DNA of 64,000 bases, taken from assembly GCA_947458745.1 (NCBI GenBank), contig CANGYQ010000014.1, positions 61,084 to 125,083 of the forward strand. Direction: 5' to 3'. This stretch comes from Bryobacteraceae bacterium (GTDB lineage: Bacteria; Acidobacteriota; Terriglobia; Bryobacterales; Bryobacteraceae). The translations under genes and the position numbers were made by a program. Within the stretch, counting starts at the first letter, position 1. Every line of letters starts with the position of its first letter. A model generated the notes under the pieces. That model worked only from the letters and a program-made list of their open reading frames with translations, ran no database searches and was not told where the DNA came from. Shown in pieces: positions 38,249 through 59,320 of this stretch.

Positions 38249-39001
38249 TCAGCGGGAAGTTCGTCGCTGCGATTCGCCCTTGGCTCGCTGCGGCCCGCGG
38301 AGCATGCGCGCCGGTTCTGCCGCCATAGCCTTCGATCTCTCCATCGCCTCGTTGATCCGGAAGCGGACGTGGGTGCGCATGGCCTCGGCGGCTTCGGCCG
38401 GTGTTCCCGTAGTGAGCACCTGAGCCAAATCACGATGCCAGCGTTCAGGGAAGGGATCAAATGCCGGCACGCGGGAGAACAGCCAGTTGAAGAGCAACAC
38501 GCGGCTACGTTCGACGGCGCTGGAGAAAGCGGGCACGCCCACCGCGCGCGCGATCAACATATGGAAGTCCATGTGTTGGCGCTCCGCGGCGGCGCCGCGC
38601 TCTGGCGCTACGAAGGGCTTGCGGGCCAGCGCGTTGTAGTTCAGGTCCAGCCGCTCGGCCGCTCGCAACAGACCCTTGCGCTGTGCCGCGGTGGCCGATT
38701 CGGCAAAAAGCCGCGCCGAATGCGTCTCCAGCGCCTCACGGAGAACATAGTTGCCGAGGATCTCTTCCGCCGTGGCAAGGCGGACCCGCGTTCCGGCACG
38801 CGGACGGCTCTCCACCAGGCCCTCTGTCTCCAGGCGTGCGATGGCGTCGCCTACGGGAACGGCGCTCATGCCCAAACCATCGGCCAACTTTCGCCGGGAG
38901 AGCGGTGTCCCGGGCGTCAAACGGCCTTCGAGAATCGCTGTCCGGATGGACTCATAGGCCAAGTCGGAGAGGGTGGTCCCGTTGGTTCGCTTCATTGACA
39001 C
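38249..39001 (-). CDS. GntR family transcriptional regulator (FadR subfamily, FCD domain)
   Basis: 'LSRRKLADGLGMSAVPVGDAIARLETEGLVESRPRAGTRV' is the GntR wHTH, followed by a helical FCD-like C-terminus. It is the last gene of the minus-strand GH/OMP operon. Confidence 0.85.
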   Translation of the reverse strand: MSMKRTNGTTLSDLAYESIRTAILEGRLTPGTPLSRRKLADGLGMSAVPVGDAIARLETEGLVESRPRAGTRVRLATAEEILGNYVLREALETHSARLFAESATAAQRKGLLRAAERLDLNYNALARKPFVAPERGAAAERQHMDFHMLIARAVGVPAFSSAVERSRVLLFNWLFSRVPAFDPFPERWHRDLAQVLTTGTPAEAAEAMRTHVRFRINEAMERSKAMAAEPARMLRGPQRAKGESQRRTSR

Positions 39002-43700: not shown

Positions 43701-44151
43701 CCCGGCCGTTGAGCGGAAGTTCAATGATGCGGCGATTCTCGATCACCTGGCCGAGCGTGGCGTTGGTGGTGTTGACCAGTGGCGCCGTGGCCTCGACGTT
43801 GACTCGATCGGTGGCCGCGCCCACTTCGAGGCTGATGTCGAGCGACACGCGATCGCTGACCTGCAGAAGCACGCGGTTGCGCGCGGCCGCCTTGAATCCG
43901 GTCTTGCTGACCTCTAAGCGATAGGTGCCAGGGCGTAGCAGCGGGAACGAGTAAAGGCCTGCGTCCGCGGTGGTGAAGCGGCGCGTGATGTTGGTGGCGA
44001 GGTCAGTGATACTCACCTCCGCGCCCGGAATCGCGGCGCCGGTGGGATCGGTGACCAGGCCTTGCAGCGTAGCCGTCGACGATTGGCCGAAGGTCGCGTT
44101 GGCGAGCGCCAACAGGAGCAGGGTCGCAAGAACGCTAATGGATTTCGACAT
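40722..44151 (-). pseudogene. CarboxypepD_reg/TonB-dependent-receptor-like OMP split by a +1 frameshift near 43465
   Basis: Track ORFs 43381..44241 (N-terminus: signal peptide, 'LQGLVTDPTGAAIPGAEVSITDLATN...') and 40722..43436 ('[V]ISVITKSGTNQPHG...') are two halves of one gene. The conserved 'SAEFGRFNGGVISVITKSG' motif is broken at gagTTTCggg. Confidence 0.75.
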
Positions 44152-44234
44152 GGGGATGCACCTCTCTGAAGTAATACTGATGTAACAGTTTATCGGGAAA
44201 AACTCTGGCGTCATGGACCGGCAGTCGGCTCTGC

Positions 44235-46868
44235 CTAGCACCGCCTCAGGGTCAGCGTGACCGTTTCATCGGCCGGCAGACGGTACCGGCCGCGGCCAAT
44301 AGCCGGGAGATCGAGCTTCTCCTCGGGCGGAACGACGAGTTCGCCGGCGGCGTCCGGCGGGAGCGTCAAACGTAGAGTTCGATTGCCCAGCGTGCCTTGG
44401 CCCGCGAAGTGGATGACCCCGTGACGCGTCTGCACCTTCATCGAAAGGTCGGGAAGATCGCCCAGCTGGGGCTGCACTTCGTAGCGGTCGAAACCTGGTG
44501 ACAACGGGCGAATGCCGGCCAGACTCATGACCGCGACGTAGAGCGGCGCGCAACAGACGTGGCTCCAATTGTTGGGCGTATCCGGCTTGTTGCTTCCCCC
44601 GTAGAATTCTTCGATCGAGTTGTTCTGCAGCACGGAGGGCATCGTCGCATAACGTTCACGGAGTTCCTTGAGCAGGGCGTCCACGCGTCCGCCCTTGGCC
44701 AGCGCCCACAATCGCCAGGCGACTGGCTCGGTGGAGTTGTCGATACCGACGTTCTTGGGCAGCGTCGCCAGCAATTCGACGCTGCGCCTGATGTCGCCGC
44801 CAGGGCACAGGCCCAGTTCCACGGAGATGCCCAGCGTCATTTCGCTGTAATGCACATCACCGTCCTCGCGCCACCAGGGCAGGTTGTCGACAAACGCGCC
44901 GTGCTCCCGGCTCCAGAAGCGGGCGACCGTGGCTTTCAAAACGCGCGCACCGAGTTGCTCCAACTCCGCGGCGAGTTGGGTGTCGCCAAAGGCCCGGCAC
45001 ATCGGGGCCATTGCCTGGCTGAGACTGGCGGACCAAAGCAGGTTGAACGCGCATTGGCGGTCGCGTTGATTCGGATAACACCCGGCAAAACCCACATACA
45101 CAATCGGGAAGCCATAGTCCTCCTGATCCACCGGCAGAAGGCCATCCGCCTTCATCTTGCTTCGTAGGTACTTCACTTGACGCAGCAGCCGCGGATAGGG
45201 CTCCTGGAGCGGACCCAGGTCAGCGGTGTAGCGGTAGTAGTCCCAGCAGTCGAACGCGAACCGGACTCCGATATCGAGAATCGCGCCGCAGTGAGTGACT
45301 TCCAGCATTCGTTGGCCCAGGCGCGTAATCCGGTCATGTGATGGCCAGTTGTCCAGGAAGTAGCCCTCGGGAGTGCATCCCTGGCTGAAGCTCCGCAGGA
45401 AGCGCGCTACCTGGCGGTTCTCACCGGCAAGCGTTTGAATGGCATGCCGACCCAAAGACATCCCTCCGGAGTATTGATTGCGCTCCCGGCTCATGCCGTC
45501 AACGAAGGCTTCCTGGGCGGCGTTGCGCATGGTGTTGGTGGCGGCGTCGAAAACGCGCTGCAGCGGCGCCTCGCTGGTGATCACCCGTGGCTCGTGCGGC
45601 CACGGATACTCGCGTTTCAGAAGGCCTGGATTCGACACGGTGACGCTGCCCTTGCCCGGGTGCAGATGCACCTGCAGCCAACGGAGGCAGTCGAAGTCGA
45701 ACCAGCGGAAATGATTGACGCCTTCGCGGCAGATGAAGCGCGCCCACTTGTGATAGTGCGTGTTGAGAAGCGCCGGACCGCCAATCTTGTGCCCGTCCAG
45801 CGTCATCATCTCCAGTGTCACCCCGGCGGGCGCCTCAATTGTCACCGAGGGCCAGCCTACCGCTTGCTCTGGGAGCGCGAAGGTTAGCGTAGTGCCGCGT
45901 TCGGGGTCGAGTTCGACGCGCCACACATTCTCCCCGGCCGGCTGCACCGCTTGCGTCACCTCGGCTTGGTAAGCATTCGGCGGACGCACCGCGAAGTACT
46001 CGGCTATCGGCCGCCGCCACCGGATGCGATGCTGCTCGACCAGTGGCGCCGCTGAGACCCAGGTCTCGCGCATCAGCGGAATTGGGCGCGGGCGCAGCTC
46101 AAACTTGGAGCGGGCTTCGGCACCGTAGATGAACTTTCGCGGGCCGTGGATCCAGTTCATCACTTCGTTCGTCGGGTCAGCGAAAATCGGCAGGTTCGCG
46201 GGGCAGGGCGGAAAGTAGGGCTCCAGCCAATCCTCGTTTTCGGTGAAGCCCGCCTGGCTCCATCCCTGTGGATGCAGGCGCGCATCAAACTCCTCCTGCA
46301 GAGCGCGCATGAAGAACATGCGATGCTGCCCCGGTTTCCAAGCCTGCGACAGGTGGACGCGCCACGTGCCATCGGAGCCGATCACTTCCTTCCGGCCATC
46401 AGCGAACTCAAGTTCGAGCCGAAAGATGAAGCCCGGCCGTCCCATCGGGTGCGTGGCGTCGCCCTGGCCGAAATGCAGCACGGTGGCGCCGATCACGTTC
46501 TCACCTTTCGTAAGCACGGCGGTGAGGTCGGTGTGGTCCACCTCGGGCCAGCGCGGGTCGTGCGGCGCCGGTCCCCATTGAATGCGGCCGCCGTTCACCT
46601 CTAGCAGATACCGGCTGTCGCCGTGGATCCAGCCGGTGGCCTTGCGCGGCTTCTCGGTGAGCTGCAGCACGCGGCGGAAGAGGACGAACGTATTCGGCAG
46701 CATGCGCTCGCCGGGGTACCACAGCCACTTAGCAGGCGAAAGGTCCAGCGTGGGGGCAGCCGGCGCGGGCCGGGCCGGATCCGGGGTGTTCTGAGAATTC
46801 GCCTGTTCCGCGGAGAGTGCGGCCACGGCACAGGCATCAAGGATCTTGAGAAATCTACGGCGTTCCAT
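44235..46868 (-). CDS. alpha-L-rhamnosidase-like (GH78-like) six-hairpin glycoside hydrolase, Tat-exported
   Basis: 'MERRRFLK' is a Tat-like signal. 'AKWLWYPGERMLPNTFVLFRRVLQL...GDSRYLLEVNGGRIQWGPA' matches the N-terminal pattern of bacterial rhamnosidase-family proteins, and the C-terminal half is helical-barrel-like. Confidence 0.55.
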   Translation of the reverse strand: MERRRFLKILDACAVAALSAEQANSQNTPDPARPAPAAPTLDLSPAKWLWYPGERMLPNTFVLFRRVLQLTEKPRKATGWIHGDSRYLLEVNGGRIQWGPAPHDPRWPEVDHTDLTAVLTKGENVIGATVLHFGQGDATHPMGRPGFIFRLELEFADGRKEVIGSDGTWRVHLSQAWKPGQHRMFFMRALQEEFDARLHPQGWSQAGFTENEDWLEPYFPPCPANLPIFADPTNEVMNWIHGPRKFIYGAEARSKFELRPRPIPLMRETWVSAAPLVEQHRIRWRRPIAEYFAVRPPNAYQAEVTQAVQPAGENVWRVELDPERGTTLTFALPEQAVGWPSVTIEAPAGVTLEMMTLDGHKIGGPALLNTHYHKWARFICREGVNHFRWFDFDCLRWLQVHLHPGKGSVTVSNPGLLKREYPWPHEPRVITSEAPLQRVFDAATNTMRNAAQEAFVDGMSRERNQYSGGMSLGRHAIQTLAGENRQVARFLRSFSQGCTPEGYFLDNWPSHDRITRLGQRMLEVTHCGAILDIGVRFAFDCWDYYRYTADLGPLQEPYPRLLRQVKYLRSKMKADGLLPVDQEDYGFPIVYVGFAGCYPNQRDRQCAFNLLWSASLSQAMAPMCRAFGDTQLAAELEQLGARVLKATVARFWSREHGAFVDNLPWWREDGDVHYSEMTLGISVELGLCPGGDIRRSVELLATLPKNVGIDNSTEPVAWRLWALAKGGRVDALLKELRERYATMPSVLQNNSIEEFYGGSNKPDTPNNWSHVCCAPLYVAVMSLAGIRPLSPGFDRYEVQPQLGDLPDLSMKVQTRHGVIHFAGQGTLGNRTLRLTLPPDAAGELVVPPEEKLDLPAIGRGRYRLPADETVTLTLRRC

Positions 46869-46879: not shown

Positions 46880-46895
46880 AACTGCGATAGCAGTT
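46880..46895. promoter_or_regulatory. operator candidate AACTG-CGATAG-CAGTT
   Basis: 16-bp inverted repeat lying 12 nt upstream of the GH78-like start (46868) and downstream of the minus-strand -10 element. Same arms as the site at 46995-47010. Confidence 0.45.
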
Positions 46896-46986: not shown

Positions 46987-46994
46987 CAATCAGA

Positions 46995-47010
46995 AACTGA
47001 CGTACCAGTT
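46995..47010. promoter_or_regulatory. operator candidate AACTG-ACGTAC-CAGTT
   Basis: 16-bp inverted repeat starting 9 nt downstream of the plus-strand -10 element and ending 15 nt before ATG 47026. Confidence 0.45.
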
Positions 47011-47025
47011 GGGAAGGTGTCGCGC

Positions 47026-50000
47026 ATGAAAACGAAGGTCCTGTTATGTCTTCTGCCCCTGCCGCTGCTCGCCCAAGAACATCACGGGTTCGTTGCTCGG
47101 CAATATCACCGACCCCAGCGGCGCTCCGGTGGCCAAAGCTTCGGTGGAGATCACTAACATCGATAGCAACCAGTCGGTGAAGGCGGAATCCGATGCCGCC
47201 GGTCTCTACCAGTCGCTCTATCTGCGCCCGGGCACCTACCGGATTCGCGTGAGCGCCAGCGGCTTTAAACAGTCGTTGCGCGAGAGTGTGGCGATTCAGG
47301 TGGAATCCACGGTTCGCGCGGACTTTCAAGTGCAACTGGGTGAGGCGAGTTCCACGGTGACCGTCAGCGGCGAGGCGCCGCTCATCGAATCAGAGACCGC
47401 GTCCCTAGGCCAAACGGTCTCTTCCCGCACCATTGAAGAACTGCCCATCCAAGGCCGCAACGTCTTCGACCTCGCCGGCCTCACGGCGGGCGTCCAGGTG
47501 AACCCTCGCGCCGTGGGCGGCACGGCTTCTACTGGCGATAACGCCACGCCGCTCTTCGTGCAGTCCGATATTTCGATCAACGGTGGGCGCTTCCGGACCA
47601 ACGAATACCTGGTGGACGGCGTCAGCATCATGTTGCCCGAGAACAACAATTTTGCTTTCTCACCGAACCCGGATGGCACGCAGGAGTTCAAGGTGTTGAC
47701 CAACTCCTTCGGGCCGCAGTACGGAAGGTCAGGCGGCGGCGTGATCAACGTGGTGACCAAGGGCGGGTCGAACGACTTGCACGGCACGGTCTACGACTTC
47801 TTCCGCAACGATCGATTGAAGGCGAACAACTTCTTCTCGAATGCCAGGAATCAACGGCGTGCCACCTCTCACTTCAATCAGTTTGGCGGCGTTGTGGGCG
47901 GGCGCATCGTGCGCGACCGCACGTTCTTCTTCGCCGACTATCAGGGGCATCGCGAGGGCTATGCGGGCATTGCGGGAATCCTTACCGTACCCACCGCGGC
48001 CGAGCGTTCCGGCGACTTTTCTCGCACGCGAGTGGCGAACGGCAACTTGATCAACATCTACGATCCGCTCTCCACCACCGAAGTGAACGGATTGTTTCAG
48101 CGGACGCTGTTTCCTGGCGCCGTCATCCCGCTCGATCGCCAGTCCAAAGTGGCTCGCAACATGGTCGGCTACTATCCGATGCCGAATCGCACCGGCGACA
48201 CGGCGGCGCTGGTCAACAACTACGTCTTCGGGCCCTCGGGATACGTCAACTCCGACCAGTACTCAGGTCGCATCGACCATAAGCTCAGCGCCCGCAATTC
48301 ACTGTTTGGCCGCTACACCTTTAACACCGGCGAGACCCTCACGTCCGGTCCCTATGGCAACATCGCCGAGAACACTACCGGCGTGAATACGAACCGTGTG
48401 CACGCTGTTTCCATCAACCTCACCACCATCGTGAATGCAACTCGCATTCTGAACTTTCGCCTTGGTGCCACTCGGCGCTTTGAAGGGCGGCTGCCTCCTT
48501 CGGCCGGCAAGGTGGATCTGGTCGCCTTGGGCTTCCCAGCAGCTTACCAGGCACAGGTGGACGAGATCGCCTTTCCCACCACGACGGTGGTTGGATATGG
48601 ACAACTCGGCGGTGCTGACCGCATTCGCCGCGGCAACGGTGTCTATACCCTGGTGGGAGAGCAGACCGAGATTCACGGCCGGCACACGCTGGTCTACGGT
48701 GCCGACGTACGGCTCTATGATCAATCTCCTTATCAAGCTGGCAATCTATCCGGCAACTTCGGCTTTGCACTCTCCCAGACGCAGGGCCCGAACGCACAGG
48801 TGGCGGCCGTCGGCTCCGGCAATGGCCTCGCGTCGCTGCTGATCGGTTTCGGTGGCGGCGGGCATACCTCAGTGCCGGCGCTCCGCATCAAGAACTGGTA
48901 CGCGGGCGCGTTCATCAATGACCAGATCAAATTCAAGAAGCTGACGGTGAATGCCGGCGTGCGCTGGGAGTACGATCAGCCGCGCGTGGAGAAGTACAAT
49001 CGCTTCGCCAATTTTGATTTCAATGCGCCCTTCCCGATCCAGGTACCTGGGATCGGTCCGCTGACCGGTCTGCTTCGTTATGCTGGGCGCGACGGCGTGC
49101 CGCGCGGGCAGAACGACAGCACCTACAAGAACTTCGGGCCGCGCGTCGGCCTGGCCTACCGTGTGAGCCCGACGTTTGTGGTGCGCGCGGGATACGGCAT
49201 CTTCTTCGCTCCGCGCTTCGGCACCACCTCGGCGGGGAACTACGGCACCAGCGGATTCACCATCACCACGCCCTGGGTCTCTACGACCGCCGATGGAATC
49301 GGCTTTGGACGCTCGCTGGACGATCCGTTCCCCAACGGCCTGGCTGGCCTGCCGACCTCGCAGGCGGAGCGCCTCTTGCTGGGCCAGACCATCCAGTTCA
49401 TGGATCGCGGCAATGTGGCCAACATCTACAACCAGCAATGGAGCTGCACCATCCAGCGCCAATCGTTCGCGGGTATTCTTCTCGAAATGGGTTACGCCGG
49501 AAACCGCGGCATAAACATTCCCGTCTCGCGTGACTTCAATCAGATCGACCCCAAGTATCAAGCTCTCGGCAACGCCCTTTCTCAAACCGTCGACAATCCC
49601 TTCTTCGGCTTGGTGACGCTGGGTAATCTCTCCCTGCAACGTGTCTCGCGCGCTCAACTGCTACGCCCATACCCCCAGTACGTTGGCGTCAACACGAACT
49701 CGCCGGCGGTCGCACAGAACATGGGCATCTCCGGCTATCATTCGCTGCAACTTCGCGCGGAGAAGCGCTTCGCGCGCGGCTACAACGTGACCATCGTCTA
49801 CACAAAGGCAAAGCTGATCGACAACGGCTCCGGTCGCATTTTCGGGGAGAGCGCGTTCGTTCCTCCTGTCCAGAACGCTTACGATCTGGCCGCGGAGCGC
49901 TCGATCTCGGAGGGCGATGTTTCCCAGCGCCTGGTGATTTCGCATGCGGTGCAGATCCCGGTGCGCCGCATCCATCCGGTACTTGACCATGCTACGCGCG

Positions 50001-50446
50001 GTTGGTCGGCGTCGGGGCAGTTCTCCGCGAATACCGGCTTTCCGCTGGTGCTCTCTTCGATCGGAAACTCCGGCGTGGGCGGCGGCATCCTGCGGCCGAA
50101 CTCGACTGGTGTCTCCGCCAAGTTGAACGGCGATCCGCAGACGCGGCTGCTCCGTTACTTCGATACCAGCCAGTTCACCGTGCCACCGGCCTTCACTTTC
50201 GGCAATACGAGCCGCACACTGCCGGACGTCCGCGGCCCGGGGCGCGTGGCCTACAATGCGTCGCTGCAGAAAGCGTTCCCGATTCGCGACACGATCAAGG
50301 CGCAGTTCCGTGCCGAAGCATTCAATCTGACCAACACGCCCTTCTTTGGAAGGCCGGCGCAGCAACTTGGCGGTCCGGGCTTTGGCGTGATCAACTCGGC
50401 TAGCGGCGAACGCCAAGTGCAGCTATCGCTAAAAGTGAACTTCTAA
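47026..50446 (+). CDS. CarboxypepD_reg/TonB-dependent-receptor-like OMP (apparent frameshift between signal peptide and mature domain at about 47075)
   Basis: ATG 47026 (GGGAAGG SD) encodes MKTKVLLCLLPLPLLAQ in frame 1. The body ('NITGSLLGNITDPSGAPVAKASVEITN...', 'GGVINVVTKGGSNDLHG', ...SLKVNF) is in frame 2, which has no ATG or GTG before TTG 47093. Confidence 0.75.
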
Positions 50447-50454
50447 GGGGCACA

Positions 50455-51684
50455 TTGACACGCCGCGACCTTCTCACCTTTCCCTGGCTCTCGCCGTTGG
50501 CGCTTCGTGGGGCTCAAACCGCCGCGCCGAAGCGGCTGGTCTGCATCGGGCTCGATCTATCAATGCGCCCTGAGCAGTTCTTTCCCGTGGGCGAGTGGCC
50601 GGACTACCAGTTGAGCCCCTTGTTGCAGCCGCTTGCTCGCTGGCGGCAGCAACTCACCGTCTTCTCACATCTGGATCATCCTGGCGTCAGCGGCGGACAC
50701 TACGGCGTCCACGCGTTTCTAAGTGGCGTCCGGCGTGAACAGGGGAGCGGTTTCGCCGATGGCTGTGTCTCGATTGATCAGCTAGCCGACGAGCAAGTCG
50801 GCAAACAAACCCGATTCTCTTCGCTTTGCCTGGGCGTGGGCGGCGGGGACAATATTTCCTGGACACGGTCCGGCATCGCCGTGCCGAAGCTCGAGGATCC
50901 ATCAGCAACCTTCGATCTCTTGTTCCGCCCACCGACTCAGGGAGTGACGGAGGCCCGGCGATCCCGGCTTGCGGAAAACCAATCCATTCTGGCCCTGCTC
51001 CAACCGCAGGCGAAGCGGCTGGGTCCGCAACTCGATCGTTGGGACCGCGAGAAGCTCGACGAGTTCATCACCGCTCTGCGCGACTTTGAGCGCACGACGG
51101 AAGCAAGCGCTGCCTGGCTCGACAAGCCGCTGCCCAAGACTGCCGGCGACCGCCCGGTGTGGTCGCCATCCGGATGCATGGACAAGGTGCGGGCCACCTT
51201 CGAAGCGATGGCGCTGGCGCTCCAGGCGGACGCCACGCGAATCATCAGTTTCAACATCGGCACCGGTTTGCCGGTGACGAAGATTCCCGGCGTGTCCCGC
51301 AGCTATCATGACCTCTCCCACAGCGGGCAAGATCCGGACAAACTGCGCCAACTCCATTTGATCGAGTTGGCGCTGGTCGGCGAATTGGATCGCTTCCTGG
51401 GGACGTTGGCCGAACGCAAGGACATCGGCGGTGGCACGCTGCTCGATCACACCACGGTGATTTTCGGCAGCGGCATGGGTAACGCTAGTTCCCACTCGAA
51501 CCTCGACCTACCTGTGCTGGTGGCCGGCGGCGGCTTCCGGCATGGGCGGCATCTCTTCTTCCCCAAGCAGGGGCGCAAGCAAACACCGCTGTGCAACCTC
51601 TATGTCAGCCTGCTGCAGAAGATGGGCATCGAGCGTGACCGCTTCGGGTCGAGCAACGGGAATCTAAATGAGTTTCTGGCGTAA
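50455..51684 (+). CDS. DUF1552 domain-containing protein (Tat-type signal)
   Basis: TTG start after AAGGGG; 'MTRRDLLTFPWLS' signal. 'SYHDLSHSGQDPDKL' and 'LLDHTTVIFGSGMGNASSHSNLDLPVLVAGGGFRHGRH...PLCNLYVSLLQKMGI...FGSSNG' form the DUF1552 pattern. Confidence 0.75.
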   Translation: MTRRDLLTFPWLSPLALRGAQTAAPKRLVCIGLDLSMRPEQFFPVGEWPDYQLSPLLQPLARWRQQLTVFSHLDHPGVSGGHYGVHAFLSGVRREQGSGFADGCVSIDQLADEQVGKQTRFSSLCLGVGGGDNISWTRSGIAVPKLEDPSATFDLLFRPPTQGVTEARRSRLAENQSILALLQPQAKRLGPQLDRWDREKLDEFITALRDFERTTEASAAWLDKPLPKTAGDRPVWSPSGCMDKVRATFEAMALALQADATRIISFNIGTGLPVTKIPGVSRSYHDLSHSGQDPDKLRQLHLIELALVGELDRFLGTLAERKDIGGGTLLDHTTVIFGSGMGNASSHSNLDLPVLVAGGGFRHGRHLFFPKQGRKQTPLCNLYVSLLQKMGIERDRFGSSNGNLNEFLA

Positions 51685-54229
51685 GCTCCTCCCGCTGGCC
51701 GTCGCAGTCGTCGCGCCGATGTCCCCGGCCGCCGCGGCGCAACCAACGCCGCTGAAGGCGGATGCCTTTCTCGCTCGCTACTGCGTGGCCTGTCATGGCG
51801 GTGCGATGCAGAAGGCCGGCCGCCGCTTTGACGACCTCCCTTTGCGCGCCGGCGCCGACCTGCGCATCGCCGAACGTTGGGAGCAGATTCTGCATCAAAT
51901 CCAACTCGGGCAGATGCCTCCCGCCAAGATGCCGCAACCCTCCGCGCAGGAGCGTCAGGCGTTAACGGCCTGGATCGAGAATCTATTGACGGACGCGCGC
52001 CAGGCTGCGATCCCGGGCAACGGCCGTGTGGTCCACCGCAGGTTGAATCGTCTGGAGTATCTGAACACTATTCGCGATCTGTTCGGCTTTCGCGAAGGCG
52101 ACTTCGACCCGACTACGGCCTTTCCCGCCGACGAGGAGGTGGATGGCCTCCGCAACATCGGTTCGGCGCTACGCGTCTCTCGTCATCACGTGGAGCAGTA
52201 CATGAGCGCCGCCGACCAAGTGCTGGCTTACGCCTACGACGTGGCCGGCGTGAACGGCATTCCGAAGCCTGGCAGTTGGGCCGACACGCCGGAAACCCTG
52301 CGGTCCGGCCTGATGGCGTATGGCACTGGCGTTGTCAAGGCCGAGAAAGCGAATGGTCCGGCTTACATCCACCTGAGCCACGGCATTCGCAATCTTGAGC
52401 AGAACTACGACGCCAAGCTTTTCTTGGACGCCCTGCCGCAAGGCGTGCCGCACTCCGGTTGGTACGATATCGAGATCGAAGCCACTGCCGCGAACCGCCA
52501 TCATCCATACGGCAAAGAACTCATGATGCCGTTGACCATGCGCTACTACCCGGACTTGAAGTCGTTCTACGACGAGTCCCAGCCCATGCGCTTGGGTGTC
52601 GGACGGCAGAAGGCCACCCGCCAGAGCGAATGGAAGCGGGTAGCGCCCAACCTGGTCCACGCCGTGGACCTTCCCGACGAGAGATATGAGACCGTGCGTG
52701 CACGTGTCTGGCTCGACCAGGGCGCCGCGCCGTATCTCGCCTTCGTCAACGGGCCGCCGAAGGGCACGAAGCCGCAGTTCGTCTCCACCAAGCTCGATCG
52801 CTTCGATCCGACGGTCCCCAAGATCGACCGCAAGGTCTGGGAGAATCTCACGCTCCGGGCCGAACGCGACGAGCACTACTATCACTTGTACAAAGGCCCT
52901 GAGATTCGCATTCGCCGCTGGCAAGTGACGGGCCCCATGGCCGGCACAACGAAGCACGCTGCCCAGTCGCTCTTGTTCTCGTCCGTCGCTCCGGACGAGA
53001 ACAAGGTGAGCGATGCGAAGCTGTCCGCCGCGCTTGCGCAACTCGCCTCCACGCTGTTTCGCCGCCGCACCTCCGCCCAGGACGTGGCGCCGTACGTCGT
53101 GGCGGTGCGGCAGCGCTTAGACGGCAAGACCCGTTACGCCGAAGCGGCACGGCCCGTCCTCAAGGCTTTGCTGTGCGCTCCCGAGTTTTTGTTCCATACC
53201 GAGCGGGCAACGGCAGCAGGAACGTTGTCGGGAGAAGAGTTCGTCAACCGCCTCTCGTACTTTCTCACTGGCGGACCGCCGGACTCCACCCTGCGCGGTC
53301 TCGCCGTGCGCGGTCCGCTCGGCGGCGCCGCGCTGCGCGCGCAAACCGATCGCTTGCTTGATTCGCCAAACGCCGACCGCTTCTTCAGCATGTTCGCCGC
53401 CCAGTGGTTGGGCCTGAACCAACTGGGGACGATGCCACCCGGGCAGGAGGAATTCCCCGGCTACTACATCGACCGGCTGGAGCCCGCTATGAGGGAAGAG
53501 ACCTGGCGCTTCGTGGCCGAGTTGATGCGGTCCCGTCGCCCAGTAAACGATTTGGTGAACGCCGACTTCGCGTATGTGAATGAAGCGTTGAACCGGCGTG
53601 TGTACGGGTGGACCGGCGCAAAGGGCGATGACGTTGAGCGCGTCACACTCCCGGGCCACGTTCCGCGTCTCGGGCTGCTTCGGCAGGCCAGCGTACTCAC
53701 GGTGACCGCGAATGGCGTCGAAACGTCGCCCGTGAAGCGTGGCGTCTGGCTGCTGGACAAGATCTTTGGCACTCCGCCCAGTCCGCCGCCCCCTGATGTG
53801 CCGCCGCTCGAACCCGACATTCGCGGCGCCGCCACCGTGCGGCAACTGCTCGCCAAGCACCGCGCGAACGCAACCTGCGCCGAGTGTCATCAGAAGATCG
53901 ACCCGCTTGGTTTTGCTCTGGAGGGCTATGACCCCATGGGCCGGCCTCGCGAGAATTATCCAAGCGGGGCCAAGATCGACACCACGGGCGAGTATCGCGG
54001 GCACGGTGTCGCCAGTGCGGTGGAGGTGCGGGATTACCTGCTGGCCCATCCGGAATTGCTGGCGAACAACCTCGCCACTCGCTTGACCACCTACGCGCTC
54101 GGCCGGTCGCTCAGTTTGGATGACCGTGCCGCCGTCCGGCAACTAGTGGCCGTTTGGCGAAGCAAGGGCTACGCGCTTCGCGAGTTGGTTCATCTCATCA
54201 CTTCCGGCGAACCTTTCCGCCGGCCCTGA
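51668..54229 (+). CDS. DUF1587/DUF1592/DUF1595/DUF1588/DUF1585-type protein (cytochrome-c-like CxxCH motifs)
   Basis: 'FLARYCVACHGG' is the N-terminal PSCyt-like motif. 'CAECHQKIDPLGFALEGYDPMGRPR' and the C-terminal 'LATRLTTYALGRSL' belong to the DUF1588/DUF1585 region. Overlaps the DUF1552 gene by 17 nt. Confidence 0.75.
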   Translation: MSFWRKLLPLAVAVVAPMSPAAAAQPTPLKADAFLARYCVACHGGAMQKAGRRFDDLPLRAGADLRIAERWEQILHQIQLGQMPPAKMPQPSAQERQALTAWIENLLTDARQAAIPGNGRVVHRRLNRLEYLNTIRDLFGFREGDFDPTTAFPADEEVDGLRNIGSALRVSRHHVEQYMSAADQVLAYAYDVAGVNGIPKPGSWADTPETLRSGLMAYGTGVVKAEKANGPAYIHLSHGIRNLEQNYDAKLFLDALPQGVPHSGWYDIEIEATAANRHHPYGKELMMPLTMRYYPDLKSFYDESQPMRLGVGRQKATRQSEWKRVAPNLVHAVDLPDERYETVRARVWLDQGAAPYLAFVNGPPKGTKPQFVSTKLDRFDPTVPKIDRKVWENLTLRAERDEHYYHLYKGPEIRIRRWQVTGPMAGTTKHAAQSLLFSSVAPDENKVSDAKLSAALAQLASTLFRRRTSAQDVAPYVVAVRQRLDGKTRYAEAARPVLKALLCAPEFLFHTERATAAGTLSGEEFVNRLSYFLTGGPPDSTLRGLAVRGPLGGAALRAQTDRLLDSPNADRFFSMFAAQWLGLNQLGTMPPGQEEFPGYYIDRLEPAMREETWRFVAELMRSRRPVNDLVNADFAYVNEALNRRVYGWTGAKGDDVERVTLPGHVPRLGLLRQASVLTVTANGVETSPVKRGVWLLDKIFGTPPSPPPPDVPPLEPDIRGAATVRQLLAKHRANATCAECHQKIDPLGFALEGYDPMGRPRENYPSGAKIDTTGEYRGHGVASAVEVRDYLLAHPELLANNLATRLTTYALGRSLSLDDRAAVRQLVAVWRSKGYALRELVHLITSGEPFRRP

Positions 54230-54242
54230 GGACTTTTTTCCC

Positions 54243-56009
54243 ATGCGATTCTTTACAACCCTTCTCCTCGTCTCCACCGCCTTCACTCAAGTGCATGACC
54301 CGCGCAATATCGTAACGGGCACCGTGATCCCCGATGAGTTCTACGCCGACCAGCCCTATATCGTCAAGACCAACGACGGCGCCTGGCTGTGTGTCATCAC
54401 GACCGGCCCGGGCCAGGAAGGCGCCGGCGGCCAACACGTGGTCAGCCTGCGCAGCACCGACCAGGGCAAGACGTGGGAGAAGGCCGTCGACATTGAGCCC
54501 AACGACGGCCCCGAAGCTTCTTACGCCGTGATGCTGAAGGCCACCTCCGGCCGCGTCTACGTCTTCTACAACCACAACACCGACAACATCCGCCGCGTCA
54601 TCGGCGACAAACCCGCCTACAAAGACGGCTGGGTGACGCGCGTCGACTCGCTCGGCCACTTCGTCTTCAAGTACTCCGACGACCACGGCCGCACTTGGTC
54701 GAAGGAACGCTACGAGATTCCGCAGCGTGACTTCGAGATCGACCGCAAGAATCCCTACCAGGGCAAAATCAAGTTTTTCTGGACCGTCGGCAAGGCCTTC
54801 GCCCACAAGGGGGCTGGCTATGTGCCGCTCCACAAGGTGGGCGGCTTCGGCGATGGATTCTTCACGTCGAGTGAAGGCGTGCTGCTGCGTAGCGCGAACA
54901 TCATGACCGAGCGGGACGCAAAGAAGATCACGTGGGAGACGCTGCCCGACGGCGACATCGGCATCCGTACGCCGAAAGGCGGTGGCACCATCGCCGAGGA
55001 GCATTCGTTCAGCGTGATGAGCGATGGCTCGATCTTCTGCGTCTTCCGCACCATCGACGGCCATGCCGCCCATACCTACAGCCGCGACGGCGGCCGCACC
55101 TGGGAGCCCTCGCAATACATGCGCTTCGCCGACGGACGCCTAATGAAGCATCCGCGTGCGGCGAACTTCGCCTGGCGCGCCGAGAACGGCAAATACCTCT
55201 ACTGGTTCCACAATCACGGCGGACGCTTCATCCGCGAGCATCCGCGCCAGCGCACCAACGCTTATGAGGAGCGCAATCCCGTCTGGCTTTCGGGCGGCGT
55301 GGAAGCGGATGGCCCCATGGGCAAAATCATCCGCTGGTCGCAACCGGAGATCGCGCTTTACGACGACGACCCCATCATCCGCATGAGCTATCCGGATCTC
55401 GTCGAAGACGGCGGCAAGTACTATCTCACCGAGACACAAAAGGACGTCGCCCGCGTGCATGAGATCGATCCGGGGCTGCTAGTCGGCCTCTGGGGTGCTG
55501 CTGAACGCCCCGTGCCGGGCCAGGCCGCCACAAACGTCGTCTTCTTCCAGCGCTCCAAGCGCGCCGACCATGGCAAGGAAGATCTGCGAGCGAGTTTCTC
55601 GCTGGATCTTTGGGTTAACCTCTCCAGCCTTGAGGCCGGTCAGACGCTGCTCAGCAGCGCCGGCATGGCGCTGCGTACCATTGCTGGTGGCGCAGTGGAA
55701 CTCACGCTGAACGATGGCCGCTCGGAAAGCCGTTGGGCGTCGGACCCGGGTTCGCTTGCCGCCGGCAAACCTCAGCACATTGTAGTGATCGTGGATGGCG
55801 GGCCGAAGATTATCAGCTTCGTCACCAACGGCCAATTCAACGATGGCGGCGAGCACCGGCAATACGGCTGGGGCCGCTTCAGCCCGAACCTCAAGAACGT
55901 GATGGGTCTGGGCGAGCTAGCGAAGTCGCCGGCGGTGCTGAAGCTCAAGGTCTTCAATCGCTACCTCCGCACCGCGGAGGCCATTGCCAGCTATCGCGCA
56001 GGCCAATAA
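54243..56009 (+). CDS. BNR/Asp-box repeat glycosidase (sialidase-like) with C-terminal LamG-like domain
   Basis: Three Asp-boxes: 'STDQGKTW', 'SDDHGRTW', 'SRDGGRTW'. The C-terminal 'LDLWVNLSS...HIVVIVDGGPKIISFVTNGQFNDGG' is concanavalin/LamG-like. No FRIP motif seen. Confidence 0.7.
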   Translation: MRFFTTLLLVSTAFTQVHDPRNIVTGTVIPDEFYADQPYIVKTNDGAWLCVITTGPGQEGAGGQHVVSLRSTDQGKTWEKAVDIEPNDGPEASYAVMLKATSGRVYVFYNHNTDNIRRVIGDKPAYKDGWVTRVDSLGHFVFKYSDDHGRTWSKERYEIPQRDFEIDRKNPYQGKIKFFWTVGKAFAHKGAGYVPLHKVGGFGDGFFTSSEGVLLRSANIMTERDAKKITWETLPDGDIGIRTPKGGGTIAEEHSFSVMSDGSIFCVFRTIDGHAAHTYSRDGGRTWEPSQYMRFADGRLMKHPRAANFAWRAENGKYLYWFHNHGGRFIREHPRQRTNAYEERNPVWLSGGVEADGPMGKIIRWSQPEIALYDDDPIIRMSYPDLVEDGGKYYLTETQKDVARVHEIDPGLLVGLWGAAERPVPGQAATNVVFFQRSKRADHGKEDLRASFSLDLWVNLSSLEAGQTLLSSAGMALRTIAGGAVELTLNDGRSESRWASDPGSLAAGKPQHIVVIVDGGPKIISFVTNGQFNDGGEHRQYGWGRFSPNLKNVMGLGELAKSPAVLKLKVFNRYLRTAEAIASYRAGQ

Positions 56010-56026
56010 GGACGCGCCGTCAGTTA

Positions 56027-57739
56027 TTGGCGGTCCCGGCCGTGGCGGCCGCCCAAACACGTCCGCCTAATATTGTTTTGATCCTCACCGACGACCAGGG
56101 CTGGTGGGACGTAGGCCGCAATGGCAACACGGCGATCGAAACACCGGCGATGGACCGCCTGGCCGCCGAGGGCGTCAGCTTCCAGCGCTTCTACGCCTCG
56201 CCGGTGTGCGCGCCCACACGGGCCAGCATCATGACGGGCCGCTACTATCTGCGCACGGGAATCTACAACACACGCTTCGGCGGCGACACCCTGGATGCGA
56301 ACGAGATCACCATTGCTCAACTGCTGCAGACGCGAGGTTACCGCACGGGGCTATTCGGCAAGTGGCATCTGGGGCACTATCGTCGCTTCCATCCGGATCG
56401 GCGTGCCTTCCACCGGTGGGTCGGCTTCACGCAAGGGCACGTGGAGCGCTACTTCCATCCCGATCAGTTGCTCGACAACGGCAAGCCCGTCAAGGCGCGC
56501 GGCCACCTCACCGATCTCTTCACCGATTGCGCCATCGATTTCGTCAAGGACAATCGCGAGCGCCCGTTCTTCCTCTACCTGGCCTATAACGTGCCCCATT
56601 CGCCCAACTACGTCGAGAATCGTTGGACCGAGCGCTATCTCAAAAAAGGAGTGCCGCTCGAAGATGCGCAAATCTACGGCATGCTCTCGCACTGCGACGA
56701 GAACATTGGCCGCTTGCTGCGTACGCTGGACGACCAGGGCCTGCGCGATAACACACTGGTTGTCTTCCTTTCCGACAATGGTGGCGTCAGCAAGTACTTC
56801 AAGGCCGGATTGCGGGGCCAGAAGGCCAGCGCCTACGAAGGCGGTATCCGCGTGCCGTGCTTCCTCCGCTGGCCGGGACGCATCGAGCCGGGCACCGAGG
56901 ACAAGTCAGCGCGTGCGGCCATGGATCTGTTTCCCACCATCGCCGAAGTGGCTGGTGTGCCCATGCCGAAGGATCGCCCCATCGATGGCAAGAGCCTGCT
57001 GGCGCCGCCGCCGGATCGAGCGCTGTTTCACATCTGGGACCGCTTTCAGCCAAGCCTGAGGAGCAATTGGTCGATCACGCGCGGCCGCCATAAACTGACT
57101 CGCACGGAGCTCTTCGATCTGGAGGCCGATCCATCTGAAAAGGTGAACCTCAAGGCACAACAGCCAGAAGTTGCCGCCCGTCTGCAGCGCGAGTTTGAAA
57201 CATGGCTCGCCGAGATGACGCGCGGCCGCCGCTTTGAGCCCGCCGCCATCGAGGTCGGCCGCGCAGATGACAATCCCGTGGAGTTGCATCCGAGTTGGGC
57301 CATCGTGCCGGGTACCAACGTCACCTGGGCCTCGCCCGGTGGAACGCCTTCCAAGCCCGAGGCGTTGCCGCGAAGCGGCGCGTCCACCGTCAACTACAGT
57401 TTCGCGGGCTACGACTGGGACACCATTGACAGTTGGCGCAAACCGGGCGATGGCGCGGAGTGGAAACTCAACGTAGTGGCGGCCGGCCGCTATCGGGTGC
57501 GATTCGCGTACGGCTGTCGTGCTTCGGCGGCGGGCGGCCGATGGCGCCTTGAGGTCGGGCGTTCCGTGCTCGAAGGAGTTGTCTTGGCAACGCCCGGCCG
57601 CAACGTGTTCCAGGAGTTCGACGTCGGCGAACTTCGTCTGGCTGCGGGGCTAGTCATCGCCCGCATCTCGGTGACCCAAGAGCGTAAGGAGGAACTAATG
57701 GCTCTGAACAGGATCTGGCTGGAGCGCATCGGCCGGTGA
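56027..57739 (+). CDS. arylsulfatase-family sulfatase with C-terminal beta-sandwich domain (start codon ambiguous)
   Basis: 'PNIVLILTDDQGWWD' and 'SPVCAPTRASIMTGRY' (CxPxR formylglycine motif), plus 'GKWHLG'. In-frame start candidates are TTG 56027 and ATA 56006. Confidence 0.85.
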   Translation: MAVPAVAAAQTRPPNIVLILTDDQGWWDVGRNGNTAIETPAMDRLAAEGVSFQRFYASPVCAPTRASIMTGRYYLRTGIYNTRFGGDTLDANEITIAQLLQTRGYRTGLFGKWHLGHYRRFHPDRRAFHRWVGFTQGHVERYFHPDQLLDNGKPVKARGHLTDLFTDCAIDFVKDNRERPFFLYLAYNVPHSPNYVENRWTERYLKKGVPLEDAQIYGMLSHCDENIGRLLRTLDDQGLRDNTLVVFLSDNGGVSKYFKAGLRGQKASAYEGGIRVPCFLRWPGRIEPGTEDKSARAAMDLFPTIAEVAGVPMPKDRPIDGKSLLAPPPDRALFHIWDRFQPSLRSNWSITRGRHKLTRTELFDLEADPSEKVNLKAQQPEVAARLQREFETWLAEMTRGRRFEPAAIEVGRADDNPVELHPSWAIVPGTNVTWASPGGTPSKPEALPRSGASTVNYSFAGYDWDTIDSWRKPGDGAEWKLNVVAAGRYRVRFAYGCRASAAGGRWRLEVGRSVLEGVVLATPGRNVFQEFDVGELRLAAGLVIARISVTQERKEELMALNRIWLERIGR

Positions 57740-58929
57740 TTACTCGGCGCAACCTGCTGGCCGCGCTTGCGCCCGCGCCGCCCCAGCTCAACTACATCCT
57801 GGTGCTCGCCGATGACATGGGCTACGGCGACGTCGGCCCGCACACGCCACATCTGAACCGGTTGGCGGCCGATGGCGTACGCCTCAAGGATCACTACTTG
57901 TGCTCGCCCGTCTGCTCGCCGGCCCGCGCCGGGCTGATGACGGGTTTGGTGCCCGATCGCGTCGGGATCACGGGTGTGCTGCGCGAACAGCACGACGCCC
58001 ATCATGGCCTGGCGCTCGGCGCTAAAACAATGGCCGACCACTTTCGCGCTCGCGGCCTCAAAACCGCCCTGCTCGGCAAGTGGCACCTCGGCATGAGTGC
58101 CCCGTATCATCCCAATCGCCGTGGCTTCGACTACTTTTGGGGCTACCTCAACGGCATGCACGACTACCGTACGAACCTCTCCGCTGGTGGAGGCGGCAAG
58201 GGCACAAGGCAGACGTACGAGAACGAAACTCCCGTCGAGCTCAAAGGCTACTTGCCCGAGTTGCTGACCCGTAAAGCGGTGGAGTTCGTCGAGCAGCATC
58301 GCAATCAACCCTACTTTCTCTACCTGGCCCATCCGCTGCCGCACGCCCCGTTGCAGGCTCCAACCGGCTTCGCGTCGCAGGAACCGCGCGACGTCTATGG
58401 CGCTATGCTTTCGGCGCTGGATGAGACGATCGGCGCCGTGCGCGGGGCGCTCGAACGGACGGGGCAATGGGATCGCACGGTGATGGTCTTCCTGTCCGAC
58501 AACGGGTGGGTCAAGAAGGTCTCGCCGGATCAGGCCCCGCTCGGCAGCAACGGACCGTTCCGCGGAGGCAAGTACGAACTATTCGAAGGCGGCATCCGTA
58601 GCCCTTGCATCGTTCGTTGGCCGGGCCTATCGCGGCCCGGCACCATCGCTAAGACGCCCACCTGGTTCGCCGATTGGCTGCCGACCTTCACCGGCGTCAA
58701 GACGCGCGCCGGCCGCGATATCCGCGACGTTATCGCCGGTCTCAAAGGGGATGAAAAACGGCTGCTGGCCTGGCGCTTCGAAGACGCGCTTGTCAAGACG
58801 CCGCTAACCTTCGCTGCCCGCCAGCGCAAATGGAAGCGGCTCAATGACGATGTCTACGATCTTGCCGCGGACCCGGGTGAGCAATATCCCATCCGGTCGA
58901 ACAGGCTGGAGAAAGAGCTCAATGAGTGA
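57736..58929 (+). CDS. arylsulfatase-family sulfatase
   Basis: 'NYILVLADDMGYGDVG', 'SPVCSPARAGLMTG' (CxPxR), 'GKWHLG' and 'VMVFLSDNG'. The GTG start overlaps the upstream stop (GTGA). Confidence 0.85.
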   Translation: MITRRNLLAALAPAPPQLNYILVLADDMGYGDVGPHTPHLNRLAADGVRLKDHYLCSPVCSPARAGLMTGLVPDRVGITGVLREQHDAHHGLALGAKTMADHFRARGLKTALLGKWHLGMSAPYHPNRRGFDYFWGYLNGMHDYRTNLSAGGGGKGTRQTYENETPVELKGYLPELLTRKAVEFVEQHRNQPYFLYLAHPLPHAPLQAPTGFASQEPRDVYGAMLSALDETIGAVRGALERTGQWDRTVMVFLSDNGWVKKVSPDQAPLGSNGPFRGGKYELFEGGIRSPCIVRWPGLSRPGTIAKTPTWFADWLPTFTGVKTRAGRDIRDVIAGLKGDEKRLLAWRFEDALVKTPLTFAARQRKWKRLNDDVYDLAADPGEQYPIRSNRLEKELNE

Positions 58930-59320
58930 AAGGCGCAACTCGCCACGCCGGTGTAATCTCGGAGGGCGAATGGCGCGTATCGTACAGATTTTGAGGCGTT
59001 TGCGATGAGCTCGGGTCTTTCTCGCTTTTCGGGTCCCTGCGGCGCGGGACACCCTCGCGGAGGGGGGAGGCGCGTTTCGGATTTGCGTGAGGGTGTTTGA
59101 ATTGTGATGAATCGCGGCCAAGGCGCACAGCCCCCTCCACTTTATCGTTGCACGCGAGAGGCTAAGAAATTGCGGCTACGCGCGTAAGTGATAGGAGTAT
59201 CGGACGAAAGAAGCCCAGAGTGTGAATCGTAAACGACGGCCTAGCGCTTTCCTAGCGAGCCAGAATCTGATATAACAATTTCTCGATTGGTAGGCGACTC
59301 GAAATGGGATTGCACTTCTG

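Follow-up and report, generated by a model that had tools for sequence, protein, structure and literature searches.

What does a tightly linked DUF1552 and PSCyt3-type gene pair contribute to an operon otherwise made up of receptor, sialidase-like and sulfatase genes? The question is raised by positions 47026-58929 of a 64,000-nucleotide (nt) stretch of contig CANGYQ010000014.1 from a Bryobacteraceae bacterium, the whole of which we call the window. In ENA the window belongs to a metagenome scaffold of 209.5 kb, ERZ28613002. Few gene modules without an explanation are as abundant in Planctomycetes, Verrucomicrobia and Acidobacteria as such pairs and the PSCyt/DUF1501 pairs, whose function has been a question since 2004. 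Our analysis indicates that the locus is probably a regulon for glycan use in a freshwater, Bryobacteraceae-like acidobacterium, controlled by a GntR/FCD protein and led by a TonB-dependent receptor (TBDR), into which the pair probably came as an inserted module. For the pair itself we tentatively put forward the possibility of a periplasmic two-subunit accessory enzyme for anionic glycans, in which the DUF1552 protein would be catalytic and its dihaem partner would transfer electrons. The genes of the locus, with open reading frame (ORF) limits where these differ, are:

47026..50446 (ORF 47093-50446), plus strand: operon gene 1, outer-membrane protein (OMP) of the TBDR type (Pfam CarboxypepD_reg, Plug and OMP_b-brl_4, E 6e-197)
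50455..51684, plus strand: operon gene 2, DUF1552 (HXXSHH) protein (Pfam E 7e-65)
51668..54229, plus strand: operon gene 3, PSCyt3-type giant protein of 853 amino acids (aa) (Pfam PSCyt1/cyt c, DUF1587, DUF1595, DUF1592, PSCyt3/DUF1588 and DUF1585)
54243..56009, plus strand: operon gene 4, BNR/LamG protein (Pfam BNR_2 and Laminin_G_3)
56009..57739 (ORF from TTG 56027), plus strand: operon gene 5, sulfatase 1 (Pfam Sulfatase, PF00884, E 1e-64)
57736..58929, plus strand: operon gene 6, sulfatase 2 (Pfam PF00884, E 2.6e-49)
44235..46868, minus strand: divergent GH78-like enzyme, distantly of the alpha-L-rhamnosidase type (Pfam Bac_rhamnosid_N/6H/C, E 1e-10 to 1e-12)
40722..44151, minus strand: second TBDR-type OMP, likely ATG at 44151 (Pfam)
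39015..40718, minus strand: MGH1-like (alpha/alpha)6, or six-hairpin, glycoside hydrolase (GH) (Pfam MGH1-like_GH and GH65 C-terminal domain)
38249..39001, minus strand: GntR/FCD regulator (Pfam PF00392, E 1.7e-16, and PF07729, E 3e-12)

The six plus-strand genes follow one another at +8, -17, +13, +17 (to TTG 56027) and -4 nt in the ORF listing. This layout, and the divergent set of GH78-like gene, TBDR, six-hairpin GH and GntR/FCD gene, had been described in an initial annotation made from the sequence alone, and Pfam recovers all of them. The arrangement is real and not a chance juxtaposition, because the sister contig L082 (JGI 3300020214) keeps the same six genes in the same order, with 89% nt identity over window positions 46948-58951 and 88-96% aa identity between the operon proteins; the operon TBDR reaches 96% with its L082 counterpart, and 77% with the TBDRs of two further loci, L087 and L091. 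The GH78-like gene also stays beside the operon in L082. There, an extra intact TBDR gene of 1132 aa with its own operator copy (L082 1743-5141, minus strand) lies between the two, unlike in the window, where no gene intervenes between the GH78-like gene and the divergent operon (46868-47026); the gene order of the regulon is thus fluid. From spacing, conservation and shared operator-like sites we infer that the six genes are co-transcribed. A scan for promoter and terminator consensus sequences did no better than on shuffles, an Rfam scan returned only tRNA, and NCBIfam added no names for the OMP, DUF1552, PSCyt3 or BNR proteins.

The same annotation had spoken of a locus resembling a polysaccharide utilisation locus (PUL), and this description holds in part. 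The operon-like unit does sit inside a glycan-utilisation locus, but Pfam found no SusD-family member among the genes between 36 and 62 kb, and thus no SusC-like/SusD-like pair of the Bacteroidota type. Of the components of a TBDR-based 'CUT' locus, the TBDRs, four enzyme types and the GntR gene are present, and Pfam recognised no domain of an inner-membrane sugar transporter in the cluster or in the neighbouring ORFs at 59287-62173 and 36671-37546, which gave no Pfam matches at all. The precomputed annotation of the source contig gives weak DUF6644 matches for two of the ORFs at 59287-62173.

The case for a shared regulator comes from a palindrome, AACTG-N6-CAGTT, copies of which stand shortly upstream of three start codons:

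46880..46895, unstranded: operator-like palindrome AACTGcgatagCAGTT, exact match, 12 nt from the GH78-like start codon
46995..47010, unstranded: operator-like palindrome AACTGacgtacCAGTT, exact match, 16 nt upstream of the OMP ATG at 47026
44175..44190, unstranded: one-mismatch copy TACTGatgtaaCAGTT, before the second TBDR, whose likely ATG (44151) follows after about 24 nt

The two exact copies are the only ones in the 64-kb window, and both lie in the 158-nt divergent region between the GH78-like and OMP genes. With ten specified bases, about 0.1 exact matches would be expected in the window, and shuffled windows contained a mean of 1.0 matches with at most one mismatch. The motif precedes each of three transcription units in L082, where the arms of the 46995..47010 copy are kept at the same place. 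L087/L088 and L091 have two copies in the space from the GntR orthologue to the TBDR, L092 has one that separates its GntR orthologue (91% identity) from the BNR gene, and of about 85 unrelated loci only 2 have a copy. In total, this candidate palindromic operator accompanies GntR/FCD orthologues in five loci; in L087, L091 and L092 the orthologues (64-91% identity) are divergent from a BNR-containing operon, with the motif in between. Since the motif is so constantly found with a GntR/FCD orthologue, it is probably the operator of this protein, which would co-regulate the units. The protein itself carries the N-terminal GntR winged helix-turn-helix and the C-terminal FCD domain of the FadR-like family, and is probably a repressor, predicted to act at the AACTG-N6-CAGTT sites. 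FCD-type regulators usually sense carboxylates, so that an acidic sugar would fit as inducer.

The BNR protein, initially labelled sialidase-like, was compared with the PDB through a profile of 50 family members at 35-51% identity, which matches GH33 sialidases only (best E 5.7e-15). R21, E253, R269, R344 and Y383 are invariant in the family and D36 is conserved in at least 90% of its members; along the chain they follow the order Arg triad, acid, Glu and Tyr that sialidases show. The only two that were aligned to known catalytic residues, E253 and R269, fall on E541 and R557 of NanB. The label had been doubted, the sequence 'QPY' being read as a degenerate RIP and a single-sequence PDB search having matched Asp-boxes only, and this doubt was overturned by the profile and the invariant residues. 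We consider it justified, from the sequence comparisons, to describe the protein as GH33-like, a predicted beta-propeller of the sialidase superfamily that carries a Sec signal and, at its C-terminus, a LamG domain. It is a reasonable inference that its substrate would be an ulosonic acid, whether Neu5Ac, Kdn, Kdo or another. Orthologues at 68-95% identity are abundant in metagenome-assembled genomes (MAGs) of Acidobacteria and Bryobacteraceae, and they also place the organism of the window in this group. The BNR/LamG family comprises about 1,700 representatives at 50% clustering, and elsewhere the unit is fused to an FAD-dependent oxidoreductase with Golvesin_C, to a right-handed beta-helix or to Amidase_3 (P0375, P0415 and P0384).

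Both sulfatases are type-I formylglycine (S1) enzymes by their sulfatase domain and CxPxR motif (CAPTR in sulfatase 1, CSPAR in sulfatase 2), and are closest to sulfatases of galactose and N-acetylgalactosamine (GalNAc) sulfates. Their relatives in the PDB reach E values of 3e-67 and 4e-53, respectively: the best for sulfatase 1 are an S1_16 kappa-carrageenan sulfatase, S1_19 and GalNAc-6-sulfatases, and those of sulfatase 2 belong to S1_16/S1_19. Sulfatase 1 has a C-terminal extension of about 170 aa, in which a relaxed Pfam scan found nothing, and sulfatase 2 is the orthologue of the single sulfatase found in operons that have no DUF1552/PSCyt3 pair (74% identity in L087, 71% in L091).

Export signals place these activities. 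Twin-arginine (Tat)-type signals begin the GH78-like enzyme (MERRRFLK), the MGH1-like enzyme (MNRRTFAK), the DUF1552 protein (MTRRDLL) and sulfatase 2 (MITRRNLL), and the ancestral signal of sulfatase 1, kept in L082, is also of this type (MTRRQLL). In the BNR and PSCyt3 proteins the signal is of the Sec type and lacks a lipobox. Tat and Sec signals that lack a lipobox imply that the chemistry of the locus would be periplasmic, and the heavy use of Tat across 38249-58929 suggests the export of pre-folded enzymes.

How, then, did the pair come to be in this operon? Orthologous operons without it exist in other Acidobacteria. L087/L088 and L091 have a GntR gene divergent from a TBDR (77% identity), a BNR gene (79-81%) and a sulfatase 2 orthologue (71-74%), and lack both the pair and sulfatase 1. 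In L092, the GntR gene is divergent from BNR, sulfatase 1 and sulfatase 2, with a TBDR-PSCyt2-DUF1501 operon upstream and a paralogous PSCyt3-DUF1552 pair downstream. In L090, BNR adjoins an esterase-TBDR-PSCyt2-DUF1501-PKD array, and L094 reads sulfatase-x-PSCyt3-DUF1552-sulfatase-BNR_2-DUF1552(69%)-PSCyt3. A decayed DUF1552 gene was sought in the 1.5-kb gap between TBDR and BNR of L084-L086, and tblastn and ORF listing found nothing there. The L082 pair shows 88-92% aa identity to that of the window, and its junctions are just as tight; outside this sister lineage, its nearest relatives are in freshwater Verrucomicrobia and Planctomycetes (57-72% identity for DUF1552, about 60% for PSCyt3), and its acidobacterial paralogues stand at 39-43%. 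Given the pair-less orthologous operons and these nearest relatives, we regard the pair as mobile and likely inserted: a module of the type found in the Planctomycetes-Verrucomicrobia-Chlamydiae (PVC) group probably entered an older TBDR-BNR-sulfatase operon. More generally, by its distribution it looks like a movable two-gene periplasmic module that joins anionic-glycan loci in three phyla.

The wider company of the pair was surveyed in 80 loci from GTDB species representatives, in which genes were called by an ORF caller of our own, labelled by phmmer, clustered and checked against Pfam; relatives at 57-72% identity form the close group and those at 41-48% the distant group, and neighbours were counted, as associations, in the 62 loci with at least six genes (23 close and 39 distant). 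PSCyt3 comes next after DUF1552 in 72 surveyed cases; of the 57 pairs that could be measured, 35 have -17 to +3 nt from stop to start, which suggests translational coupling and a stoichiometric complex. At least one gene of a glycan-degrading type occurs in 16/23 close and 25/39 distant loci. In the close group, GH28-like beta-helix proteins are present in 12 of 23 loci and lie directly upstream of the pair in 9 of 27 cases, and the recurring neighbours are an extracytoplasmic function (ECF) sigma factor, BD-FAE and Peptidase_S15 esterases, GH28, GHL10 and BNR_2. In the distant group, sulfatases are present in 23 of 39 loci, at 26% of the +1 and 19% of the -1 positions (about 10% at +/-6), and FG-GAP, GFO_IDH_MocA, 3-keto-disaccharide-hydrolase and formylglycine-generating enzyme (FGE)-like genes recur.

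The DUF1552 protein, which the initial annotation had guessed to be of a hydrolase fold, is confidently modelled with the fold of the alkaline-phosphatase/sulfatase superfamily. It belongs to PF07586 with 220 bits against a cut-off of 30, covers profile positions 1-302 of 307 and reads HDLSHS at the family motif. Profiles of DUF1552 and of PSCyt3 gave no meaningful matches to PDB sequences. The AlphaFold2 (AF2) model of DUF1552 (pLDDT 87.9, pTM 0.87) was more informative: its first 17 PDB matches in Foldseek all belong to the alkaline-phosphatase/sulfatase superfamily, the top six with E values of at most 1e-3 and probability 1.0 at modest TM-scores of 0.36-0.43. They include steroid sulfatase (E 8e-6), the fucoidan sulfatase PsFucS1, phosphonate monoester hydrolase, LtaS-like proteins and nucleotide pyrophosphatases/phosphodiesterases (NPPs); the top rank of steroid sulfatase is probably explained by a long helical hairpin in the model, DUF1552 residues 162-222. 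Profile alignment by hhalign agrees (DUF1552 with sulfatases E 5e-5, DUF1552 with DUF1501 E 4.6e-5, DUF1501 with sulfatases E 9e-9), and all three alignments run over the same C-terminal strand-and-helix region. No [CS]xPxR motif was found in the DUF1552 protein. What is invariant in the family is a different set, S71, H82, D108, H285, H289, N343, H347 and N349, with H75 and the Tat arginine pair conserved in at least 90%; in the hhalign alignments, the metal-binding Asp of sulfatases falls on N343 and the His of the 'DH' motif of DUF1501 on H347. Full-text searching of the literature gave no functional study of DUF1552.

PSCyt3-type domains were first defined in Rhodopirellula baltica. The giant protein of the operon carries all six domain models above cut-off in one chain (PSCyt1, PSD3, PSD5, PSD4, PSCyt3 and PSD2), and a relaxed Pfam scan of its middle region, residues 190-450, was empty. 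Its two CxxCH motifs, at residues 39 and 737, are kept in 51 homologues; C737/C740/H741 and M83-P84-P85 are invariant in the family and C39/C42/H43 are conserved in at least 90%, the Met-Pro-Pro motif being typical of class-I cytochrome c. Two conserved haem sites argue for electron transfer and against the passive scaffold that had been suggested at first.

A second pair of a giant CxxCH protein and a Tat-exported partner, also recognised initially, lies elsewhere in the window:

32282-36626, minus strand: second pair, a giant protein PSCyt1-PSCyt2(DUF1549)-LamG-PSD1(DUF1553) of 996 aa and a DUF1501 protein of 454 aa

The PSCyt2 giant has CxxCH at residues 34 and 328 and overlaps the DUF1501 gene by 11 nt; it shares its N-terminal cytochrome region with the PSCyt3 protein (hhalign 92%), and the DUF1501 protein starts with an MTRRRML signal. 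Both pairs of the window adjoin a TBDR gene. A third TBDR (30571-32322), just downstream of the DUF1553/DUF1501 pair, ends after about 390 residues.

Taken together, these data suggest the following scheme. The substrate would probably be an anionic glycan, sulfated and capped with a sialic-acid-like ulosonic acid. The regulator would act as repressor at AACTG-N6-CAGTT sites located 12-24 nt before the first gene of three units, namely OMP-DUF1552-PSCyt3-BNR-Sulf1-Sulf2, the GH78-like gene and TBDR-GH-GntR, and a carboxylated sugar would probably lift the repression. Oligosaccharides would come in through the TBDR, and their periplasmic processing would fall to a GH33-like exo-ulosonidase, two formylglycine sulfatases, the GH78-like enzyme and the six-hairpin GH. 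The pair probably arrived from a PVC-type donor and would have been inserted between the receptor and sialidase-like genes. Its DUF1552 protein, with an alkaline-phosphatase/sulfatase fold, a His-rich site and no formylglycine, could be the catalytic subunit, folded or loaded with its cofactor before Tat export, and would act on an ester-type substituent, which it would take off or modify; for its part, the dihaem partner would exchange electrons with the metal centre of DUF1552, much as the cytochrome domain of Cellvibrio Cbp2D does with lytic polysaccharide monooxygenases (LPMOs), and may add substrate binding. A doubtful generalisation would be that DUF1552/PSCyt3, and by analogy DUF1501/PSCyt2, form a new class of periplasmic enzymes for anionic glycans, in which a dedicated dihaem cytochrome activates a formylglycine-free subunit of alkaline-phosphatase fold or trades electrons with it. 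Such a class could, for example, consist of redox-gated, formylglycine-independent de-esterases or desulfatases.

Several observations weigh against this scheme. The direction of change, insertion and not loss, rests on identity levels and not on a tree, and the pair may have been lost in the other lineages. The enrichment counts of the survey come from a crude gene caller and have no genome-wide background, so that they are associations and not statistics. The close PVC relatives of the pair rarely have sulfatases nearby (0-9% per position). DUF1552 conserves neither the Asp/Asn that classically bind the metal nor the nucleophile motif, so that its catalytic role is putative, and no enzyme of the alkaline-phosphatase superfamily is known to require an electron donor. 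The AF2 model of the PSCyt3 protein is poor (pLDDT 49, from a shallow alignment at 56-88% identity).

Finally, the window copy of the operon may be decaying or mis-assembled, in view of a receptor frameshift and a sulfatase 1 gene without ATG. The receptor's ATG at 47026 and its signal peptide are in another frame than the barrel ORF (from 47093) because of one extra base near 47074-47077 relative to L082, whose orthologue is intact, with 1139 aa and the N-terminus MKTKILLGLLPLPLLAQNITGSLLGN. In L082, the ATG of sulfatase 1 shares bases with the stop codon of BNR (TAATG) and yields MTRRQLLAVPAVAAAQ; in the window this ancestral ATG is AGG at 56009-56011, and initiation at the next start, TTG 56027, would truncate the signal peptide and remove its RR part. 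The second TBDR (40722-44241, minus strand) likewise falls into two ORFs, owing to one frameshift near 43456-43460; blastx aligns residues 17-229 of a homologue in one frame and 228-1132 in the next. These lesions may reflect pseudogenes or assembly error.

The function that the initial annotation had favoured for the pair, as occupant of the slot of receptor accessory proteins, supposes that the CxxCH giant is a glycan-binding or sensing scaffold to which the Tat partner is bound, with the role of SusD/E/F-type proteins. A TBDR gene does directly precede or follow such pairs in Acidobacteria (both pairs of the window, L082, L090 and L092), and PSCyt2-type giants carry LamG/CBM-like (carbohydrate-binding module) domains (PMC5615132; PMC3542564). 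But TBDR genes make up about 10% of the genes of the window, so that adjacency to one is cheap here, and in the survey a TBDR lies within 10 kb of the pair in only 2/23 close and 2/39 distant loci (4/62); the large unannotated neighbours that were checked as possible missed TBDRs proved to be of other kinds, such as efflux pumps, MacB-type permeases, FG-GAP proteins and a glycosyltransferase. Orthologous TBDR-BNR-sulfatase operons do without the pair, the signals, free of lipobox or surface features, send it by Tat and Sec to the periplasm, and conserved haem sites with a His-rich pocket in an enzyme fold point to chemistry and not to passive binding. Since adjacency recurs in Acidobacteria yet is rare among the surveyed loci, co-transcription of pair and receptor is a habit of the acidobacterial lineage and no requirement, and the pair is not a receptor accessory in general. 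We hold such a receptor-accessory role to be quite unlikely; a periplasmic accessory enzyme for anionic glycans fits better. The chemistry could also be of another kind, with DUF1552 oxidising or reducing a sugar or substituent and the dihaem subunit wiring it to the respiratory chain, in an oxidative glycan route parallel to GHs. A Tat-exported catalytic subunit with a Sec-exported cytochrome c subunit is the typical design of periplasmic dehydrogenases, and the present pair shares it along with the conserved haem sites. The recurrence of GFO_IDH_MocA and 3-keto-disaccharide-hydrolase genes nearby agrees with this idea, as do the enrichment of PSCyt genes in oxic-layer genomes, their anticorrelation with GH density (PMC5615132) and the electron-transfer role proposed for the DUF1501 module (PMC3542564). 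However, the modelled fold is that of a hydrolase/transferase superfamily with no known redox member, and Pfam found no flavin, molybdenum, pyrroloquinoline quinone (PQQ) or Fe-S signature, which makes an oxidoreductase unlikely in our judgement.

Two further explanations deserve less credence. The pair might be a horizontally inserted passenger, without functional ties to its neighbours, in a decaying operon, as its presence/absence polymorphism among orthologous operons, its PVC-like affinity and the lesions of the window (frameshifted receptor, lost sulfatase 1 start codon, second frameshifted TBDR) would allow. Yet all six genes are intact in L082, where the pair is as well conserved as described above; both pair types stand beside BNR/sulfatase clusters in three further acidobacterial arrangements, and PVC loci hold the pair with BNR_2, GH28-like and sulfatase genes, so we judge this account very unlikely. 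Hardly likely at all is a role in sulfatase maturation or reactivation, by which the pair would make or repair formylglycine with haem-delivered redox equivalents. Sulfatases do flank the pair in the distant group, with their peak at the adjacent positions, and FGE-sulfatase-domain genes recur nearby; against this, the closest relatives of the pair are almost without adjacent sulfatases, the pair-less operons still hold a sulfatase, and the Tat-type signals on the sulfatases imply folding, and presumably maturation, before export.

Outside the locus, the remaining genes of the window have their own features. A tRNA-Lys (27529-27604) is followed by a tyrosine-recombinase integrase (27705-29030, minus strand), a layout typical of an integrated element. 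Positions 1-26900 are also rich in carbohydrate-related and outer-membrane genes: GH3 (2272-4134), a PQQ dehydrogenase (10364-12493, minus strand), GT4 (12694-14070, minus strand), an amidohydrolase (25227-26861, minus strand) and two more full-length TBDR-type OMPs (16777-20136, minus strand, and 20874-24443, plus strand). The TBDR ORF at 16777-20136 shares about 430 nt at its 3' end with an ORF of 853 aa (14651-17212).

The locus offers a clean handle on these pairs, being a small, readable operon with a single GntR-type regulator, a recognisable predicted operator and related pair-less operons; the comparison of operons with and without the pair is a natural test of what the module contributes. 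It is also an acidobacterial example of a compact regulon for probable sulfated sialoglycans in freshwater. If true, a class of enzymes with alkaline-phosphatase fold and dihaem subunit would explain hundreds of pairs that accompany or replace sulfatases and GHs in three phyla.

Part of this picture is already known. Working on freshwater Verrucomicrobia, He et al. 2017 reported one uncharacterised family beside the PSCyt2 genes and another beside the PSCyt3 genes, with sulfatases and LamG/CBM domains often in the neighbourhood; they regarded the products as apparently periplasmic and suggested for them a function parallel to that of GHs but achieved through other chemistry (PMC5615132). For the DUF1501 module, Kamneva et al. 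2012 proposed electron transfer with a Tat-exported cofactor enzyme (PMC3542564), and a preprint describes the same association in mat MAGs (10.1101/2022.05.18.492586). The general idea of a tie between PSCyt genes and sulfatases or carbohydrate modules has thus been published before (PMC5615132; PMC3542564), and PSCyt-sulfatase neighbourhoods had been described for Verrucomicrobia. Among relatives, the only activity shown experimentally is electron donation by the X183 domain of Cellvibrio japonicus Cbp2D, which reduces LPMOs; that protein has the architecture CBM2-X158-FN3-X183 cytochrome c-DUF1587-X132 cytochrome c (Branch et al. 2021, PMC8981238). One lignocellulose-bound protein of Cellvibrio has a CBM2 and is annotated 'DUF1592 domain-containing' (PMC6004670). 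What our study adds is the palindrome of each unit, the pair-less operons with the PVC affinity of the pair, and the fold of DUF1552 with the sialidase residue set of the BNR protein.

Set beside known systems, the individual parts are recognisable and their combination differs. Like GH33 sialidases such as S. pneumoniae NanB, the BNR protein has a lectin-like domain attached, and its R21, R344 and Y383 are invariant in the expected order; unlike in NanB, the LamG domain is C-terminal, overall identity is very low and a single-sequence search finds Asp-box segments only. Compared with Bacteroidota PULs and proteobacterial TBDR 'CUT' loci, the window locus lacks a SusD-like gene and a recognised inner-membrane transporter in the cluster, its receptor is of the acidobacterial CarboxypepD_reg/OMP_b-brl_4 type and its regulator is GntR/FCD instead of a hybrid two-component system (HTCS) or ECF/anti-sigma; it shares with them the TBDR accompanied by glycan enzymes and sulfatases, the dedicated regulator and, probably, periplasmic oligosaccharide processing. 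By its described domains, Cbp2D resembles the PSCyt3 protein in being secreted, in its two single-CxxCH cytochrome domains with DUF1587 and in its link to polysaccharide breakdown, whereas its CBM2/YceI/FN3 domains, the lack of a described DUF1552 partner and its extracellular action on cellulose set it apart. The DUF1501 + PSCyt1/PSCyt2/PSD1 (DUF1549/DUF1553) module likewise combines a Tat partner of about 450 aa with a CxxCH giant; the N-terminal cytochrome c region is common to both giants, and the partners align to the same C-terminal region of sulfatases. The order is reversed, however, with the giant first in the case of DUF1501 and the partner first in that of DUF1552, the other domains differ, and DUF1501 and DUF1552 are barely alignable, over about 80 columns only (E 4.6e-5). 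The Verrucomicrobia pairs of He et al. agree with the present one in Pfam architecture, partner family, sulfatase and LamG/CBM neighbourhoods and predicted periplasmic location. Unlike these, the pair of the window stands in a TBDR-led acidobacterial operon under a GntR/FCD protein with a predicted operator, and it has orthologous pair-less operons with which it can be compared.

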